A stretch of 28,129 bases of DNA. Origin: Candidatus Lithacetigena glycinireducens (GTDB lineage: Bacteria; Coprothermobacterota; HKB111). The translations under genes were made by a program, and so were the position numbers. The notes beneath the pieces were generated by a model. That model saw only the letters and a program-made list of their open reading frames with translations. It was not told the origin of the DNA and ran no database searches. Position 1 is the stretch's first letter; the number at the start of each line of letters is the position of its first letter. The stretch lies in assembly GCA_018725485.1 (NCBI GenBank), contig QLUP01000001.1, positions 1 through 28,129 on the forward strand. Direction: 5' to 3'. Positions 10,153-20,261 of this stretch are shown in pieces.

Positions 10153-11799
10153 TTGGCAATCTCGATAGGAGACGCTCTGTTAAAGCTTGGCTTAGATAAG
10201 ACTGCTTTTGACAGTGATATGAAAAACTTAGATGCCCAAGTGAAAACCTCCATGAAGAAACTCCAGACCGCCTTTAAAGTTGGTGGAGCAGCCATAACTG
10301 CTATGGGTGCCGCTGGGCTTAAATTCGTGTCTGATGCTCGAGTAATGAATGCTCAGCTTGGTCAAACTGCTCTGATCCTCGGTATAACTACCAAAGAAAT
10401 ACGAGATTTGGCTCTGGCTACTGCCGATGTGTCCTTCCCCATCAAGAGTGTTGCTGACACTTTCGAACTACTAAGCAGAGCAGGGGTAAAAAATACTGAG
10501 GACATGAAGGCTAACGCTAAAGCCTTCGATGCCCTGGCTGACGCTACAGGCTCAAGTGCTGAGGTAATAGCTGGCATGCTCATCCCAGCTTTCAGGGTAT
10601 TCGGGAAAGAACTACCAAAAACCTCTAAAGAACTGGATATATTTACCTGGTTAAGCAGAGAGACTACAGTTAATTTAGGTGATTTTAGCGGCATGTTAAC
10701 TCGTCTGGCTCCCCAAATGATCGAAGCAGGAATAAGCATGGAAGACGCTGTTATTGCCTTAGCTGCTTTGGAGGAGAGAGGTATTACCGGAAGAGCGGCT
10801 ATGCGGGAACTAAATGAAGCGATTGGAGAATCAGTTGAGAGAAATATAAGTCTCCATCAGGCTTTAGGCATAACTACCGAGGAGGTTGGCAGGTATAATC
10901 AGCAGATAAGTGAATCTGTAGGAATCACCGATAAATATGCGGCAATAGCTGATAAGCAGTTTGGGATTATGGACAAGTTAAAGCATGCATGGAGTGAACT
11001 TACTTTTGCCGCAGGCTCTTTTTTAACTCCCTTAGAGCCTATCTTAACTGCTATGACTGCCCTGGGGCCAGTGATGATGTTTTTCGGAACAGCTACAGCT
11101 GCAGCTACCATAAAGACCATAAAACATACCGCAGCTTTGATAGCAAAGAAGGTGGCTCTGACAGCCAGCACTGTGGCCATCAAGGCAGCTACTGCTGCTC
11201 AATGGCTCTGGAATGCGGCTATGACTGCTAATCCTATCGGAATAGTTATAGCGGGGATAGCAGCCCTAATAGCAGCTATTATCTTGATAGCCAAGAACTG
11301 GGATTGGATCAGAGAGAAGACTATAAATGTTTGGGAAAGGCTGATGATTTTCTTCCGGGGGATAGTTGAACGGATAGGCGGTATTTTTGCAGGGTTAAAG
11401 GAGATGATATTAAGTCCATTTCGGGCTGCCTTAAGTGGAATAGAGGCAGGGATAAATTGGTTAATTAGACAGTTAAATAAAATCAGTTTTAAGGTACCTG
11501 ATTGGGTACCTCTTCTCGGCGGGAAGACTTTTGGATTAAACATCCCTGAAATTACCTTACCTAAATTTGCCCATGGTGGTTTAATTACCGAACCTACTCT
11601 TCTCTATGGATTGCGTTCTAAGAGACCCTATGCTGTTGCTGGTGAATCTGGGCCAGAAAGAATCTCTCCTATAACAAACTATGCAGGTGCAACTTACATA
11701 ACTCATCTGCACATAGGCACTTTAATTGCTGATGAAGCAGGTTTAGAAAAATTGAGATGGGAACTTCAGAGGATTGACAAAAAGGTAGGGCTGAGATGA
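10153..11799 (+). CDS. Tail tape measure protein
   Basis: 548 aa, TTG start with SD AGGAGGT; Ala/Gly-rich helical; MTANPIGIVIAGIAALIAAII..KNWD and PKFAHGG motifs. Confidence 0.9.
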   Translation: MAISIGDALLKLGLDKTAFDSDMKNLDAQVKTSMKKLQTAFKVGGAAITAMGAAGLKFVSDARVMNAQLGQTALILGITTKEIRDLALATADVSFPIKSVADTFELLSRAGVKNTEDMKANAKAFDALADATGSSAEVIAGMLIPAFRVFGKELPKTSKELDIFTWLSRETTVNLGDFSGMLTRLAPQMIEAGISMEDAVIALAALEERGITGRAAMRELNEAIGESVERNISLHQALGITTEEVGRYNQQISESVGITDKYAAIADKQFGIMDKLKHAWSELTFAAGSFLTPLEPILTAMTALGPVMMFFGTATAAATIKTIKHTAALIAKKVALTASTVAIKAATAAQWLWNAAMTANPIGIVIAGIAALIAAIILIAKNWDWIREKTINVWERLMIFFRGIVERIGGIFAGLKEMILSPFRAALSGIEAGINWLIRQLNKISFKVPDWVPLLGGKTFGLNIPEITLPKFAHGGLITEPTLLYGLRSKRPYAVAGESGPERISPITNYAGATYITHLHIGTLIADEAGLEKLRWELQRIDKKVGLR

Positions 11800-12137: not shown

Positions 12138-14447
12138 ATGCCTGTTAAAGAGTTAAATTATCGGGTTACTTTATTAAAAGAATATAGGGGAGCGCCTGCT
12201 GGGAGTAAAACCTGGCTGGTTGATCCTTTAACCATTACGGGCAATGAACATTCTGCTTATTTCCCTCTCAGAGACGTTTTGAGTAAGTTGCCTTTAGACA
12301 TTAATTTAGCCAGATACGGAATCTGTGATGTACATAGAACTGATGATGGTTTTATCTGCCTGGCGGTAGATGGGACAGTTAAAAGGGAATGGAGAGGAGC
12401 TTTATCTCCTGTCACCGGGGTATATGTTACTCCTCTGGTCTGGGAGGTAATATACAGAACCCTGAAACATCCCGGAAGAATAGTATTAGAGGGTGGAGAA
12501 ATCAGAAGGGCCGATATTAGATTCAGGGATATAAATGGGGTCTGGCATATATTATTTACTGATGTGGTTATACCTAATGACCTGGTATTTACGCCAAGAA
12601 CGATTACCGGAATCAGAATCAGTGTAAAAGAAACCCAGGCCGGTCATCAGAGACCGAGAATAAGGAATTTAGTTTTACACGCCGATACCACTACTCTGAA
12701 AAGTGAGGTGGTCAGTCTCAGGCTATTATTGTCTGCTGAAAAGACCAGCTTAATTCCTCAGTGGGGGTCCATCCAAACAGGAGCTTTTGATATGGTAGTG
12801 AGGGACCCTGGTTGGGCAACTTATCCTTATCAGTTACCGGTGAGATTTGAGGTTGGTTTGCCTGGACTCTCACCAATAATGTTAGGTTTTGTAGACAATT
12901 GGGAGAAAAAAGAAGTTGGCGGAGTTAGATACTGGAAGGTTGACGGTAGAGATGTTCTGAAATTAGCTAAGGAAAATACAACCAGGCCTGACTATCGTTA
13001 TAAATATAGATTAGGGGATTTATTCAGTTATTTGATTAACTTTTTAGGGGTGAGTGGAGTTAATGAAGTTGGACAGGGTAAAGAAGTTAAATGGGCTATG
13101 TTTGATAGAATCTGGGACGATTTAGGTTATATTGCTGCGGCTATACAGGGTAAAATTACCGCCATCGATGACATAATTTACCTGAGACCCATAAGTGGTG
13201 TGGTTGAGTATAATCTTTTTGACAGCGACATAATCGATAGGCCCGAGCAGATAGATGTAGCCGTAAATAAGATAAACATAGAGAGCTCATTTTACGATTC
13301 TCATCATTGGATACTAAATTTAGGTTCTTCCGGTTTCTTTGTAATACAAAGCAACCAGGTTTATAATATAGAAACACCTTATTTTCATATACCCTCCGAC
13401 CCCGATTCTCTTATGTTTGCCGGACTTTTTAGACACACCGGGGAGTTTTATTCAGACAATTATAGTTGGTCTATAATCTCAGCTACTCCTGAGAGGTGTA
13501 CAGTCAGGATAACTACTGCTATCCTGATTAATCCTGGGGCTATTGTCCAAGCCAGAGTCCAGGGAAGAAGTATTAGCAAAAAGAGTATAAGCCGTATAGT
13601 AGAAGATAAAGATAGCCAGTTAATCTGGGGGGAGAGAGAAGCAAGTGTAAAGCTGAAGTTTTTAGAAAGTGGGGTAGAAGTAGAGAATTTAGCCTATGCC
13701 ATACTCGCTTTTTATTCGGGTATTAGTAGGTATAAATTAACTTTAACGCTAAGACCCGAATTAAGGGCTGGAAGTGTTATCAGGTGGAAGGATAGAAACT
13801 TTTTAATTGCTTCAGTAGAACACTCTTTACCCGCCTGTACCACCATTATTGAGATAGAAGAGATTAAGCCTTGGGAGGTGACAGAAAAATTGTTAAGGGA
13901 TTTAAGTGCCTATAAGAGAGTTGGTGTTACGGCTAACAGGTATTATATCGCTGGACACCTGGGAGGCGGTGTAGCTACCACACTGACAGTATCGGCTAAT
14001 ACCATATATGCTATGCCTCTTATCTTGCCGCAGGGGGTAAATATTGATAGATTATTATCAGAGATTACTGTTTTATCGGCTGGTAATGCCAGATTTGGAA
14101 TATATAGCGACGAGAACATACATCCTAGAGACCTGATACTAAACGCTGGAGAAGTCAGCACTGGCTCTACAGGGGTAAGGGAAAGGAGTTTGAATCAAAA
14201 CTTAACTGGCAATAGATTATACTGGTTTGTAATTCATTTTTCAGCTACCCCCACCGTAAGGGCCATAGCCAGAGAATATGTTTTACCTGTTATAGGAGCC
14301 CCTGTTACCTTAGGAGCGGATATTACCCCTTCGTGCTGGATATTAAGCAGGGCCTATGCTGACGGATTACCAGCGATTATGCCTGCTATGACTACGGCTA
14401 ATATTAATATACCCGCCATAGCGGTCAGAATAGCGAGCTATATTTAA
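12138..14447 (+). CDS. Tail tip / baseplate hub protein with C-terminal putative receptor-binding beta domain
   Basis: 769 aa after the Dit-like gene; VDGRDVLK and SQLIWGERE..L.L.L.PEL..G.VI segments typical of hub proteins; last ~165 aa resemble the tail fibre C-domain. Confidence 0.7.
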   Translation: MPVKELNYRVTLLKEYRGAPAGSKTWLVDPLTITGNEHSAYFPLRDVLSKLPLDINLARYGICDVHRTDDGFICLAVDGTVKREWRGALSPVTGVYVTPLVWEVIYRTLKHPGRIVLEGGEIRRADIRFRDINGVWHILFTDVVIPNDLVFTPRTITGIRISVKETQAGHQRPRIRNLVLHADTTTLKSEVVSLRLLLSAEKTSLIPQWGSIQTGAFDMVVRDPGWATYPYQLPVRFEVGLPGLSPIMLGFVDNWEKKEVGGVRYWKVDGRDVLKLAKENTTRPDYRYKYRLGDLFSYLINFLGVSGVNEVGQGKEVKWAMFDRIWDDLGYIAAAIQGKITAIDDIIYLRPISGVVEYNLFDSDIIDRPEQIDVAVNKINIESSFYDSHHWILNLGSSGFFVIQSNQVYNIETPYFHIPSDPDSLMFAGLFRHTGEFYSDNYSWSIISATPERCTVRITTAILINPGAIVQARVQGRSISKKSISRIVEDKDSQLIWGEREASVKLKFLESGVEVENLAYAILAFYSGISRYKLTLTLRPELRAGSVIRWKDRNFLIASVEHSLPACTTIIEIEEIKPWEVTEKLLRDLSAYKRVGVTANRYYIAGHLGGGVATTLTVSANTIYAMPLILPQGVNIDRLLSEITVLSAGNARFGIYSDENIHPRDLILNAGEVSTGSTGVRERSLNQNLTGNRLYWFVIHFSATPTVRAIAREYVLPVIGAPVTLGADITPSCWILSRAYADGLPAIMPAMTTANINIPAIAVRIASYI

Positions 14448-14455
14448 GGAGAGAA

Positions 14456-14914
14456 ATGAGTGTTTGGTCAACAGTATCCTGGGTTTTTAGGGATGATATA
14501 ACCTCTGCTAAACTGCAGGCAATGAGTAATAATGATTTATACCTGAGAGACAGGCTTCGTTTCCATTATGTAGGCGATGAGACTGAAAGAAGCGTGGCTG
14601 GAACGACGGAAACAGAGATCAAGTTTTTTAGGATGATAAAACATCCTAATGCTTATAACCTGAGGTTACTGAGGTTTTTTGCCGAGTTGAGAGTATCTGC
14701 TGCCTCTACTGGGACTTTAAGGATATACTTAGATGGTGCTGCTTCACCTTCTTTAACTTTAACTACTATAGCCACGGCTTTTGAATTACTAAATGGTTCT
14801 ATAGATGTTTCTGCCTGGGCCGATGGAGTACATACGGTATCTATCCGGTTGTTAAACTCAACAACCGCAACTACCATTAACAGACTTTTGGAATGTTATG
14901 TTGAGGTAGTGTAA
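14456..14914 (+). CDS. Minor tail structural protein
   Basis: N-terminal WSTVSW..RDDITSAKLQAMSNNDLYL resembles fibre-anchoring segments; beta-sandwich-like C-terminus; TAATG coupling to the first Cys-rich ORF. Confidence 0.55.
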   Translation: MSVWSTVSWVFRDDITSAKLQAMSNNDLYLRDRLRFHYVGDETERSVAGTTETEIKFFRMIKHPNAYNLRLLRFFAELRVSAASTGTLRIYLDGAASPSLTLTTIATAFELLNGSIDVSAWADGVHTVSIRLLNSTTATTINRLLECYVEVV

Positions 14915-15363
14915 TGAGAATAAGGGAAAAGGCAATAAGAACTACACAACTCAGAGACATAGAATGTGCTACCTGTGAGGTTTGCCAGGCCTGTCAGAAT
15001 TGTAATGTCTGTCAGTCAGCTTTTGGTACCTGTGGTATCTGTATTACCTGCCAATCTTGTAATACCTGTCAGTCCAGGATAACTTGCGTCTTATGTTTTA
15101 GTTGCGAGAATTGTGTTACCTGCCAAATGGAAGCCAGTTGTGGGGTATGTTTTGCCTGTCAATTATGTGTTACGGCTTGCCAGAATAATTTTGGTACCTG
15201 TTCCAGCTGCGTTACCTGCCAGATCTGTAATGTTTGCCAGATCTGCAATGTCTGCCAATCTTGTAATACCTGTCAGTTGAATTTTGGGAGCTGCGGAACT
15301 TGTGTAGTCTGCCAAGTTTGTGCAGCTTGCCAAATTTGTAATATCTGCCAGAGCGGGATATAA
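14914..15363 (+). CDS. Cys-rich repeat protein A (37 Cys in 149 aa, CxxC register), candidate radical SAM substrate
   Basis: Short basic leader MRIREKAIRTTQLRDIE, then six blocks of CxxCxxC repeats separated by short linkers; SD GAGGT; adjacent to the rSAM/SPASM gene. Confidence 0.85.
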   Translation: MRIREKAIRTTQLRDIECATCEVCQACQNCNVCQSAFGTCGICITCQSCNTCQSRITCVLCFSCENCVTCQMEASCGVCFACQLCVTACQNNFGTCSSCVTCQICNVCQICNVCQSCNTCQLNFGSCGTCVVCQVCAACQICNICQSGI

Positions 15364-15669
15364 ATGAGTACTAATATTAGACTTTGTATAACCTGCCAGA
15401 TATGTAATTTATGCCAATCCTGTAATACCTGTCAGGCTTGTGTAGCTGCTCAGCCGAGCTGTGCTACCTGTGAGGTGTGTAATGTTTGCCAGAGTTGTGT
15501 TACCTGTCAGCAGTGTAATGCAGTTTGTTTTAGCTGCAACAGTTGCCAGAGCTGTATAACTTCTCAAACCTGTGGGACGTGCGATAAGTGCTTCACCTGT
15601 CAGAATTGTTTTTCTGACCAGGGTACACCTCCAGTTTGTGCTGCCTGCCAGAGTTGTAATACCTGTCAG
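15049..15669 (+). repeat. Four dispersed 24-bp repeats encoding CQSCNTCQ
   Basis: TGCCAATCTTGTAATACCTGTCAG identical at 15049-15072 and 15253-15276, one mismatch at 15412-15435, variant at 15646-15669. Confidence 0.9.
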
Positions 15670-15780
15670 GTGTGTTTTGGCTGCCAGAATTGTAACATTA
15701 GCCAGGCCTGTAGCTGCCAGGTTTGTGCAGCCTGCCAGGTTTGTGCAGCCTGCCAGAATTGTTTTATTAGCCCATTTTAA
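15364..15780 (+). CDS. Cys-rich repeat protein B (37 Cys in 138 aa), candidate radical SAM substrate
   Basis: Same CxxCQx repeat as protein A; starts immediately after its TAA, in the same frame. Confidence 0.85.
   Translation: MSTNIRLCITCQICNLCQSCNTCQACVAAQPSCATCEVCNVCQSCVTCQQCNAVCFSCNSCQSCITSQTCGTCDKCFTCQNCFSDQGTPPVCAACQSCNTCQVCFGCQNCNISQACSCQVCAACQVCAACQNCFISPF
15714..15756 (+). repeat. Perfect 18-bp tandem repeat (about 2.4 copies) encoding CQVCAA
   Basis: CTGCCAGGTTTGTGCAGC x2 followed by CTGCCAG. Confidence 0.9.
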
Positions 15781-15791
15781 GAGGAGGAAGT

Positions 15792-17102
15792 ATGGAAGAG
15801 TGTGAAAATTGTTTTACCTGTGAGAACTGCTACACCGACCAGAGCTGCGTAGAATGTCAGGTATGTGTTGAATGCCAGAGTTGTTATACCGCTGAATCTT
15901 GCGATAAATGTGAATCTTGTTTTACCTGCGAAACGGTGGCTCAACCTCACGGTTTGGTACAAAAAACCTGTCAGATTAAGCCTAAGATATATACCAACTC
16001 TTTAACCATCTTTGCTTCTAACGGCTGTAACTTAGATTGTGAGTACTGTTTTTTTAGGGGAACTAAAGACAAAGACAATCTTACCTATGAAGTTGGTAAA
16101 GAGGCGGTAGATTTTCTCTTCTTAGTTTCCGATAGCACTAAACCTGTTTCTATCTGGTTTTTTGGTGGTGAACCCTTCCTTAACTACGAGGTTATGCAGA
16201 AGGTTATTCTTTATGGGAAGCAGAAGGCTAAAAAATATGACAGGCAGTTGTCTTTTGGGGCTACTACCAATATGACCTTACTTAACCAGGAGAGAATAGA
16301 TTTCTGGCATGAGGAGGGTGGTAATCTATTAATTTCTCTTGATGGTTGCGAGGAGGGGCATAATTTCTACAGGAAAGATATATATGGAGAAGGCTCTTTT
16401 GCTACTGCCTGGAACTGGACTGAGAAATGGCTAAAACTAAAGCCTGAAACTTCTATCAGGTTTACCGTAAACCCGGAAACCTTACTTTACCAGATAAAAG
16501 GGCTTAAGTTCTTAGTAGAGTGGGGAGTAAATAATATCGCTATGTGTCCTAACCAGGAATGCGACTGGAGTGAGGAGGATTATAAACTTTATAAAGAAAA
16601 TCTTCTGGAAATAGCTGAGGTGTTTATAGCGAAGTTACGAGAAGGCAGAAGGCTTCTAATCAAACCTTTTGAAGACGGCTTTTCACTACATAAAATAAAA
16701 GGTAGGATGGGAGGAACTCGTTGCGGCACAGGGGGTTATGATGTGGGGGTTGGTGTTGATGGGAAATTATACCGCTGTCATCGTTTTGTTTTAAGAGGTG
16801 AAGCCGGGGAAATAGGCAATGTCTGGGACGGCTTTTCGGAGAAGAGGAAAGAGACCTTGAATTATGATATAAATAAGATACAGGGTTATAATTGCGAGAA
16901 GTGTATGATAAAAGCACGCTGTAATGGATACTGTATAGCCGTAAATCAGGATAGAAAAGGTGATTTATGGATTGTGCCTGAGGAAGTATGTAAGCAGGAA
17001 ATTATACATCAGGAAGTAGCGGATTTTATCCTGAATACTTTGAGAAGTGAGGAAAAACTTTATAATAAAGTGATGGGAAATGAAAATAAAAGTTGTAGAT
17101 GA
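15792..17102 (+). CDS. Radical SAM/SPASM-domain enzyme with N-terminal Cys-rich repeat tract
   Basis: CNLDCEYC (CxxxCxxC), FFGGEPFLN, ATTN and ISLDG core motifs; complete seven-Cys SPASM pattern C-x12-G-x4-C ... C-x2-C-x5-C-x3-C-x18-C; SD GAGGAGG. Confidence 0.93.
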   Translation: MEECENCFTCENCYTDQSCVECQVCVECQSCYTAESCDKCESCFTCETVAQPHGLVQKTCQIKPKIYTNSLTIFASNGCNLDCEYCFFRGTKDKDNLTYEVGKEAVDFLFLVSDSTKPVSIWFFGGEPFLNYEVMQKVILYGKQKAKKYDRQLSFGATTNMTLLNQERIDFWHEEGGNLLISLDGCEEGHNFYRKDIYGEGSFATAWNWTEKWLKLKPETSIRFTVNPETLLYQIKGLKFLVEWGVNNIAMCPNQECDWSEEDYKLYKENLLEIAEVFIAKLREGRRLLIKPFEDGFSLHKIKGRMGGTRCGTGGYDVGVGVDGKLYRCHRFVLRGEAGEIGNVWDGFSEKRKETLNYDINKIQGYNCEKCMIKARCNGYCIAVNQDRKGDLWIVPEEVCKQEIIHQEVADFILNTLRSEEKLYNKVMGNENKSCR

Positions 17103-18232: not shown

Positions 18233-19537
18233 TTGTCTATTAGAATAAGAGTTAGAAGGGGTCCAAAAGCCAGACTACCAGTTCTTGGAGCTGGCGAGTT
18301 TGGTTTTACTACAGATACTAAGGAAGTATTTATCGGCGACGGCACTGCTAATCACGAGTTAGAGATGACTGCACGAAAAGGTGCGCCTTCTGGTTATGCT
18401 GCTCTAAATGCTGCTTCTTTAGTAGTGCAGAATCCCGCTAGTGCTACTGTAACTGCCGCACCAAATAGCATTGTTTTACGGGATGCTTTTGGTAGGTCCA
18501 AAATAGCAGCTCCCGCTGCTGCTGATGATATTGCTCAAAGAGCTCAAGCGGATGCGGTCCAAACTAATCTTGATATTCATTCTAGTTTAACTATAGCTCA
18601 TGGTGCTGTTTCTGCTGCTATGGCAGGCCGAATAGTAGTTCGGGATGCGAATGCCAGAGCTTCTTTTGCCGCACCCTCAGCAGCAGGCGATGTCGCTATC
18701 CTCTCAACAGTAACTGACCACGCAGCAGCAACTACAGGAGTCCATGGAGTAGGAACTTCTGTGGTCGAAAGTGTAGCAGGTGCTCAGAGTAAAGTAGACA
18801 TACACGGAGCATTAACAGCTCCGCATGGTGCCACTGATGCTGCTATTGCAGGTAGATTAGTCTTAAGAGACGCAGCAGGTCGAGCTAAATTTGCTGCTCC
18901 TGCTGCTGCTGGGGATGCTTTAATAAGAGGTGCGAGGCTAACTGCAGCAGAGATGCCTGATGGACCAATTGGTCTGGTTTTGACAGGTAGAGGACCTGGG
19001 GTTAATCCTGTTTATGAGGCTGCTGATTACCCTAGAAACCTAAAACCTGCTATAGTAAGATGGGCACTACCTGGGTGGTCTGGTGGATCTCGTGATGGTG
19101 TATGCACTGCTAATGTGATTTATTATATTCCCATTTTTGTTTCGGAAACTACTACTTATATAAGAGTTGGACTTTGGGTTCTTGTTGCATCTGCAGGGAC
19201 TATAGATATAAGAATATTTAGTTGGAGAGATGGAGTTCCTCACTCTTTAATCTTAAGCGCAGGAACAGTAGATACAGGAACTACAGGGCCAAAAGAAATA
19301 ATTATTTCTCAAGTATTAACTAGAGGTTATTATTTTTTAGCTTATAGATGTACAGGTACACCTATTTGTGTGGGTTTTAGTGATGATGCTCGAACACCTG
19401 CAGCAATTATGAGAAAACTAGGATGGGGAACTACCGAAAGTGTGTTAACTGTTATGGCTGCATATGCTGATCCTGCTCCTGCTCCAACTGATATTGCTAG
19501 AAATATGTTTGCCGTTCTTGTTTTAAGAGAAAACTAA
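18233..19537 (+). CDS. Tail fibre / receptor-binding protein
   Basis: TTG start with SD AGGAGGT; N-terminal IRVRRG..LPVL..GEFGFTTDTKEVFIGDG (Mtd_N/hyaluronidase-like anchor); three VxRDA.GR...AAP.AA.D shaft repeats; beta-rich C-domain. Confidence 0.8.
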   Translation: MSIRIRVRRGPKARLPVLGAGEFGFTTDTKEVFIGDGTANHELEMTARKGAPSGYAALNAASLVVQNPASATVTAAPNSIVLRDAFGRSKIAAPAAADDIAQRAQADAVQTNLDIHSSLTIAHGAVSAAMAGRIVVRDANARASFAAPSAAGDVAILSTVTDHAAATTGVHGVGTSVVESVAGAQSKVDIHGALTAPHGATDAAIAGRLVLRDAAGRAKFAAPAAAGDALIRGARLTAAEMPDGPIGLVLTGRGPGVNPVYEAADYPRNLKPAIVRWALPGWSGGSRDGVCTANVIYYIPIFVSETTTYIRVGLWVLVASAGTIDIRIFSWRDGVPHSLILSAGTVDTGTTGPKEIIISQVLTRGYYFLAYRCTGTPICVGFSDDARTPAAIMRKLGWGTTESVLTVMAAYADPAPAPTDIARNMFAVLVLREN

Positions 19538-19547
19538 CAGGAGGCGT

Positions 19548-20261
19548 ATGATGGCAGAGCAGGGAATTTACCAGATTAAGAATATTTTGAATGAGAAAAT
19601 ATATATTGGAAGTGCGATTAATATTAAGGCACGGTGGGGAATGCATCTTCATCTTCTAAAGAAGGGTTTACATCATAATAAACATTTACAAAACGCCTTT
19701 AATAAATACGGGGAAAATTCATTCAAATATAGTATTCTGGAAATTGTCCAAACACCCGAAGGATTGATCTTATTAGAACAACATTATATAGATTTACTCC
19801 AGCCCGAATATAATAAACGACTGTTTGCTAAAAACAATTTAGGGGTAAGACATACTGAAGAAGTAAAACAAAAAATGGGTAAGGAACGCATAGGGAAACC
19901 TCTCTCGGAGGAACATAGAAAAAAATTAAGTGAGGCCCGAAAGGAATTTATGACTAATCCCGAACACAGAAAGAAGATAAGTGAACTTAATAAAGGAAGA
20001 ATATGCACTAAAGAAACAAGGGAAAAATTAAGTGAGGCTACTAAAAGGACTTGGGCTAATCCTGAAAACAAATTAAATATGCGTAAAAATACAAAGAGAA
20101 AATCATATGACTCTCGTGTTCCTCCTTCAAGGGAGACAAAGCAGAAAATAAGTGAGGGAGTAAAACGATATTATGCTAATCCAGAAAATAGGCAAAAGCA
20201 AAGTAAAGATATGAAACGATATTATGAACAGCGAAATCAAGAAATTAGAGAAGTGAGGTGA
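19548..20261 (+). CDS. Free-standing GIY-YIG homing endonuclease with NUMOD3-like repeats
   Basis: GIYQIKNILNEKIYIGSAINIKARW..H...L....H.NKHLQNAFNKYG..SF...ILE, followed by H/TEE.K.K(I/L)SE repeats. Confidence 0.9.
   Translation: MMAEQGIYQIKNILNEKIYIGSAINIKARWGMHLHLLKKGLHHNKHLQNAFNKYGENSFKYSILEIVQTPEGLILLEQHYIDLLQPEYNKRLFAKNNLGVRHTEEVKQKMGKERIGKPLSEEHRKKLSEARKEFMTNPEHRKKISELNKGRICTKETREKLSEATKRTWANPENKLNMRKNTKRKSYDSRVPPSRETKQKISEGVKRYYANPENRQKQSKDMKRYYEQRNQEIREVR

Follow-up and report, generated by a model that had tools for sequence, protein, structure and literature searches.

A predicted thioether-type radical SAM maturase in a phage tail module carries a substrate-like cysteine repeat at the position of the recognition element

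We begin by considering a radical SAM (rSAM) enzyme whose first residues resemble the Cys-repeat proteins encoded just upstream of it, and ask what such a segment may do at the head of a maturase in which no RiPP recognition element (RRE) is found. The gene lies in a stretch of 28,129 nucleotides (the window), a 28.1-kb phage-like contig that is contig C1 of a MAG of 1.24 Mb and 83% completeness. This MAG is placed in the bacterial domain by the presence of ribosomal protein L20 and the absence of the archaeal S8e; no rRNA was found in it. The portal gene (651-2012) is closest, among deposited phages, to viruses of Methanoculleus (archaeal) and to a human-associated caudovirus, with about 28% identity, despite the bacterial MAG. 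Also in the window are protease and capsid genes, the tape-measure gene (10153-11799), a gene for a tail protein of 769 aa (12138-14447), an Mtd_N-type fibre (18233-19537) and, directly 3' of this tail-fibre gene, a GIY-YIG/NUMOD3 homing-endonuclease-like gene (19548-20261). phrog_25864 is matched by the C-terminal part of two of these proteins, the 769-aa tail protein (residues 583-754) and the Mtd_N fibre (residues 293-413).

Between the tail-tip and the fibre genes, four genes follow one another free of gaps. The first of them (14456-14914, + strand) encodes a fibre-tip-like domain protein of 152 aa, and its stop overlaps the start of the gene for Cys-repeat protein A. This 152-aa protein shares 43% identity (E 5e-25) with the C-terminal domain of an ORF of tail-fibre type in the prophage locus L017, where that ORF precedes the Cys-repeat genes, and it has a weak similarity (E 0.027) to a domain fused before the Cys tails of cellular relatives. 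The phage 152-aa ORF and the Cys-repeat gene together look like a split version of a putative "fibre-tip domain plus Cys tail" protein. Protein A (14914-15363, + strand; 149 aa, 37 Cys) has a leader of about 20 aa followed by repeats with Cys at every third position, and over leader and repeats it shares 45% identity with the A-type protein of L017. The A-type leader is also present in L018, L020 and L011. It has the form R-x-x-[IV]-R-T-x-[NQ]-[LIV]-R-D-[IV]-E-C-x-T-C over about 20 residues, and is located at 14914-14976 in the window, L017:488-560, L018:3745-3810 and L011:4530-4600. The neighbours of protein A in the ESM Atlas are of low confidence and beta-helix-like, with nothing else among them. 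Protein B (15364-15780, + strand; 138 aa, 37 Cys) has almost no leader, and B-type proteins with the Cys run starting within a few residues of the Met are found in L009, L010, L017, L018 and L023 as well. The Shine-Dalgarno sequence GAGGAGG (15781-15787, + strand) then stands 4 nt upstream of the ATG at 15792, where the gene for the radical SAM/SPASM protein (15792-17102, + strand; 436 aa, beginning MEE) starts.

The N-terminal Cys tract covers residues 1-48 of this enzyme (15792-15935, + strand) and is built of three units of 4-5 Cys. The first-pass annotation, made from the letters of the DNA, had described it as a Cys-dense tract in a regular register, as substrate-like and as acidic. The first description is accurate: 13 Cys (residues 4, 7, 10, 13, 19, 22, 25, 28, 31, 37, 40, 43 and 46) stand in a single triplet register between residues 4 and 46, broken at positions 16 (D) and 34 (A) only. 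As the other 388 residues hold 15 Cys, the chance of finding Cys at 13 of 15 in-register positions is, by simple arithmetic, about 1e-16. The second description is also sound, as the tract belongs to the same repeat family as A and B and shares with them a motif that terminates the unit, CQxC-x-[TS]-x-Q, which recurs in the substrates of L009 and L017. The acidity holds for this enzyme, with 23% D/E in the tract versus 2.3% in the two upstream ORFs, but other tracts are neutral or basic, and acidity is dropped as a defining property of such tracts. At the level of DNA, the tract and the upstream ORFs belong to one repeat family with a period of 18 nt, at an identity of 60-72% that is also typical between copies inside A and B. 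Since the tract is no closer to the ORFs than their own copies are to each other, it is an old family member and not a fresh duplication; a recent duplication from ORF A or B is ruled out, as there is no near-identical DNA copy.

A linker (residues 49-67; 15936-15992, + strand) follows the tract and contains Pro64, which is near-invariant in the aligned homologues and located just before strand beta-1. AF2 runs with alignments of 100 and of 15 rows both give residues 1-61 a pLDDT below 50, with the tract undocked. When the core (residues 62-436) with three 4Fe-4S clusters and SAM is co-folded with residues 1-61, the score is 0.02, which speaks neither for nor against binding. In these models, the tract is disordered and tethered by a flexible linker.

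We now consider the catalytic part and its family. The radical SAM/SPASM core (15993-17102, + strand) is delimited by PF04055, NF047865, invariant Cys columns, AF2 and Foldseek. The rSAM motif C79-x3-C83-x2-C86 of the partial TIM barrel is located at 16026-16049; Pfam Radical_SAM PF04055 matches with E 3.4e-14, and the rSAM Cys columns are invariant in 100 homologues. The seven Cys of the C-terminal SPASM domain (311, 329, 368, 371, 377, 381 and 400; 16722-16991), the set for two auxiliary clusters, are invariant or at least 90% conserved. Among the NCBIfam models, that of the PapB-family core (NF047865) ranks first with 247.2 bits over residues 69-391 (cut-off 340), followed by the SCIFF-maturase model TIGR03974 (156.2 bits, cut-off 425) and other thioether-maturase models, and none reaches its cut-off; TIGR04068 gives 115.3 bits versus 500. 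The nearest solved structure is that of CteB, both by sequence (E 1.9e-33, residues 65-403 of the query versus 93-438 of CteB) and as the top Foldseek match (5wgg, TM 0.70), and the fold also matches anSME. In the AF2 model, the pLDDT of the core exceeds 90 from about residue 67.

No RRE of about 90 residues was found in this enzyme: the alignment to CteB begins at its residue 93 and that to TIGR03974 at position 96, and only 67 residues precede the core. The earlier argument that there is no room for an RRE agrees with these alignments and with the 33 residues that separate C46 from the rSAM motif. It had linked the missing RRE to the tract, but the RRE-less state is common to the whole clade and not caused by the tract. 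Because the alignments skip the N-terminus of CteB and residues 1-61 are unfolded in prediction, the RRE of CteB-type enzymes is absent, with the tract and a 19-residue linker in its place. With no curated cut-off reached and no RRE, we class the enzyme no more closely than as related to the rSAM/SPASM maturases that form thioethers; judged by its sequence, it is a predicted CteB/PapB-like, RRE-less maturase of the thioether type. The same MAG also encodes a conventional SCIFF pair on contig C170 (locus L015:1423-2915, minus strand), in which a 45-aa SCIFF peptide (PF13165, 33.7 bits) is directly upstream of a 450-aa maturase. This maturase scores 392.6 bits with TIGR03974, just below the cut-off of 425, and is aligned from profile position 1, RRE region included. 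On contigs C79, C86, C91, C132, C151 and C175, the MAG also has an element in multiple copies, with a gene for a Cys-rich "KKECPDL..." protein between unusual reverse-frame ORFs rich in Cys, Pro and Leu; this element is probably an insertion sequence or a repeat family of the MAG.

Do other members of the family keep the tract, as the first-pass annotation had proposed to check? An exhaustive HMMER search gives 323 matches at E <1e-30, and the census was taken on the best 150 representatives, pairwise less than 50% identical. An N-terminal Cys tract starting at residue 2-9 is present in 15 of the 150, that is, in the window enzyme and 14 others. Thirteen of the 15 fall in one clade of 35 rows (SH-aLRT 99): the window enzyme, P0002, P0052, P0054, P0067, P0070, P0071, P0076, P0078, P0079, P0102, P0170 and P0190. 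None of 500 label shuffles clusters the tract as tightly, and its distribution on the tree requires at least 4-7 gains or losses. The window enzyme has the traits by which we define this clade: its CxxC-type unit begins between residues 2 and 9, the linker is flexible, the core is RRE-less, and the gene is immediately preceded by Cys-repeat ORFs. Since relatives this distant retain the tract, it probably has a function.

The aligned tracts share a common unit, C-[QE]-x-C-[YFV]-[TS]-x-[QE]; two Cys, which are C28 and C31 in the window enzyme, are invariant. Across the 15 homologues, the number of Cys per tract varies from 3 to 19, and the distance from the last tract Cys to the CxxxCxxC motif from 24 to 67 residues, the flexible part being rich in Q, P, G, K and R. 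The shortest called tracts have exactly three Cys in a CxxCxxC arrangement (P0071 and P0085). The "short" tracts of P0052 and P0170 are truncated gene calls, as the open frame upstream holds more Cys units when compared with L019 and L023, and in L011 (4549-4941) the Cys-repeat ORF is called in the wrong frame. Both kinds of error imply that censuses of called proteins undercount the tracts. In one homologous rSAM maturase, P0103 (785 aa), an intein that contains a LAGLIDADG domain (PF14890, PF14528) is inserted directly before the conserved C-H-R-F motif of the SPASM region. Three further searches were carried out: a single-protein scan of viral contigs gave no match, a word-index search with residues 1-60 returned the query itself as the sole match, and a profile of the 15 tract-bearing enzymes retrieved no further tract-bearing proteins. 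A scan of IMG/VR with the latter profile gives an in-frame tract in only 2 of 80 loci (L019 and L023), most of the matches coming from other clades.

The DNA around these relatives provides a second line of information. Cys-repeat ORFs are directly upstream of every tract-bearing relative with readable DNA, mostly among phage tail genes (six loci read: L008, L009, L010, L011, L013 and L023; L010 and L019 are one viral contig of 114 kb). The order in L009 is a 725-aa tail protein that ends in Cys repeats, a repeat protein of 248 aa, the enzyme and a tail fibre; the 769-aa tail protein of the window has no detectable homology to this Cys-tailed protein. In the tract-less cellular subgroup P0003-P0011, the enzyme genes are behind genes for proteins of 500-735 aa that have globular domains and period-3/4 Cys tails at the end. 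The proposal that the enzyme and the Cys-rich ORFs are more than chance neighbours is supported, as the two are conserved partners in all readable loci (4 cellular, 3 tract-less phage or prophage and 6 tract-bearing). The three cassettes nearest to that of the window have a tract-less enzyme: the prophage L017 (38% identical) and the viral L018 and L020 (35-36%). These follow the same order as the window, with the fibre-tip domain, protein A with the same leader, protein B and the enzyme. Because the same synteny is found without the tract, the tract is accessory.

How does the tract compare with the repeats of the substrates? In a 6x6 comparison, tracts are no more like the substrates of their own locus than those of foreign loci. 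The idea that the tract is a copy of the local substrate, or co-varies with its cognate, is therefore dropped, as foreign substrates match equally well. The similarity between tracts is 0.49 compared to 0.41 for size-matched substrate sets (13 of 16 higher, Wilcoxon p 0.005), a test in which the sequences are phylogenetically related and the substrate set is that of nine loci with readable substrate ORFs. Tracts that are closer to one another than to substrates form a lineage of their own. This lineage has a distinct composition: F or Y follows the Cys in 34% of cases in tracts versus 12% in substrates, and N stands two positions after the Cys in 29% versus 8%. From these sequence patterns, the tract is a true repeat unit with a conserved flavour of its own. 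The donor Cys of the true unit are kept in it, as are the unit's T and Q/E positions, which suggests that it is probably cross-linkable itself, and the tract may also be cross-linked in addition to the substrates.

Combining this information, we propose tentatively, with a probability of roughly 0.4, that the tract serves the enzyme in place of an RRE: as a repeat unit on a tether, it would retain the enzyme on the repeat substrates. In this proposal, the enzyme-borne copy of its neighbours' repeat unit is joined by a disordered linker to an RRE-less CteB/PapB-like core, and would associate, as a multivalent handle, with the like-sequenced repeats of A and B. Through the handle, the enzyme would stay on substrates that are long, polymeric and almost without a leader, as its active site introduces the Cys thioether cross-links into A and B, so that homotypic recognition by the tract would replace the recognition of a leader by an RRE. 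Several features support such a handle, including the location of the tract at the RRE position of an enzyme without RRE, its conservation in 15 lineages as a substrate-type unit with a lineage of its own, and the nearly leaderless B-type substrates. A range of 3 to 19 Cys with long linkers rich in Q, P, G, K and R is as expected of a handle that works by avidity, and a tract that is dispensable in L017, L018 and L020 is more in keeping with an enhancer of affinity than with a part of the catalytic machinery. Other features count against the handle: A-type substrates have a conserved leader, and in neither of the AF2 runs is the tract docked or ordered. That tracts are no closer to their cognate substrates counts against a specific pairing of tract and substrate, and the patchy distribution, with 4-7 gains or losses and close cassettes that are tract-less, would also fit a fusion that is merely tolerated.

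The chief competitor, possible but rather doubtful, is that the tract is a self-substrate, following the fusion logic of borosins: the enzyme would cross-link the repeat at its own N-terminus, either in cis or inside an oligomer, and the modified tail may join the fibre-tip assembly or be released. The donor Cys and the T/S and Q/E positions kept across the 15 lineages are in line with this, and the approximately 12-55 disordered residues before strand beta-1 could plausibly let the tract reach the active site. Two separate substrates are already encoded in the cassette, however, the closest cassettes are tract-less, the signature of the tract differs from that of the substrates, and no cleavage motif is seen in it. 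An extension of the same idea, which we regard as a long shot, is that the self-cross-linked maturase is built via its tail into the Cys-repeat structure at the tip of the tail fibre, co-assembled or covalently, and is thus a component of the virion; if true, such a self-modifying maturase would be the radical-SAM counterpart of the self-modifying borosin enzymes. The same conserved T/S and Q/E positions, which mirror the substrates and are not ligands, argue against an extra metal or Fe-S site, in which the CxxCxxC runs would bind a further cluster or Zn and feed electrons to the enzyme or stabilise it. The CxxCxxC spacing does occur in ferredoxin-type sites, and the shortest called tracts have just these three Cys; any such Cys tract is also expected to bind metal in vitro. 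But the number of Cys ranges between 3 and 19 and a constant fourth ligand is missing, the two "minimal" forms P0052 and P0170 turn out to be truncated gene calls with longer tracts upstream, and the set of seven SPASM Cys needs none from the tract, all of which makes a metal site unlikely.

It is also improbable that the tract is the roleless relic of a fusion between an upstream Cys-repeat ORF, or its 3' end, and the rSAM gene. Such a fusion is mechanistically easy, as in all cassettes 11-25 nt lie between the end of the Cys-repeat ORFs and the start of the rSAM gene, and the patchy distribution with tract-less closest relatives agrees with it. A relic, on the other hand, does not account well for a tract that is in frame right after the Met in 15 lineages less than 50% identical, that has its own signature and is closer to other tracts than to substrates; neither a relic Shine-Dalgarno sequence or start in the linker nor a near-identical DNA copy is seen. 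Could the tract instead be a separate small Cys-repeat peptide, with the enzyme beginning downstream? In-frame GTG (15936) and TTG (15954) codons exist, but neither has a Shine-Dalgarno sequence, no stop separates the tract from the core, a strong Shine-Dalgarno sequence precedes the ATG at 15792, and the continuous frame recurs in 14 homologues. A wrong start is thus hardly credible, and the first-pass annotation was right to read the tract as translated with the enzyme.

Returning to the proposed handle, a conserved substrate-like tail in the place of the RRE provides an idea, testable by truncation, of how RRE-less rSAM maturases find large repetitive substrates, with like-with-like recognition or processivity, or else self-modification, as candidate explanations. 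If the handle exists, tails of this kind could direct thioether-forming enzymes to leaderless designed substrates. As the cassette is located in phage tail modules, where some repeats are fused to tail proteins, it is also of interest for the question whether phages of anaerobes staple a part of their virion enzymatically. Our literature search found no paper on a substrate-like repeat carried by the maturase itself, and nothing specific on CXXX repeats, phage rSAM Cys-rich tail fibres, SPASM enzymes with a virion or fused precursor-rSAM proteins.

We finally compare the window enzyme with known systems. The best solved relative by sequence and fold is CteB, which acts on CteA (SCIFF, thermocellin; Clostridium thermocellum; PDB accession codes: 5WGG, 5WHY). 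Like the window enzyme, CteB combines an rSAM core with a seven-Cys SPASM domain, and it forms a Cys thioether on a Cys-rich peptide. While CteB grips the leader with an N-terminal RRE of about 90 residues, the window enzyme has there the 48-residue Cys tract and the linker; the CteA-type substrate has 45 aa, whereas those of the window are repeat proteins of 138-149 aa, and the SCIFF-maturase score is far under the cut-off (156 versus 425 bits). The top NCBIfam match across the whole catalytic core is to PapB, the maturase of PapA (freyrasin ranthipeptide, NF047865). In repeated CX3D motifs, PapB joins Cys to Asp/Glu and tolerates variation in sequence; a dependence on leader and RRE is assumed for it (PMC9413430). 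The repeat of the window has a period of 3 with Q, N and T, in contrast to the PapA-type CX3D repeat with D.

The action of an rSAM enzyme on a large protein of Cys repeats has been studied by experiment in CrpC/CrpA, the case that we found. CrpC of Methanococcus voltae (2026) is a SPASM rSAM enzyme that installs ranthionine cross-links on the adjacent large Cys-repeat protein CrpA, and the engagement of this substrate goes beyond leader and RRE (PMC13692751). The archaeal, cellular CrpC lacks a Cys tract and is predicted to have an RRE, while the window enzyme is RRE-less and located in a phage tail module; with the CrpC family model TIGR04463 giving 47.8 bits versus a cut-off of 525, the adjacent Cys-rich proteins are the only common trait. 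The CXXX-repeat system (TIGR04115 maturase, TIGR04119 domain; TIGRFAMs) resembles the window in pairing an rSAM/SPASM maturase with Cys-periodic repeat targets. Its models give low scores, however (TIGR04115, 110.8 versus 350 bits; TIGR04119, 48.6 versus 150 bits), the period is 3 in the window and 4 in that system, and no separate helper protein is seen in the window. Borosin N-methyltransferases such as OphMA carry the substrate core on their own polypeptide and modify it. OphMA has an unrelated fold and chemistry and its C-terminal core is its sole substrate, whereas the window enzyme has separate substrates and self-modification is only a candidate. The chemistry and the fold class are thus already known from CteB and PapB, and it is the substrate-like repeat at the position of the RRE that sets the architecture of the window enzyme apart.
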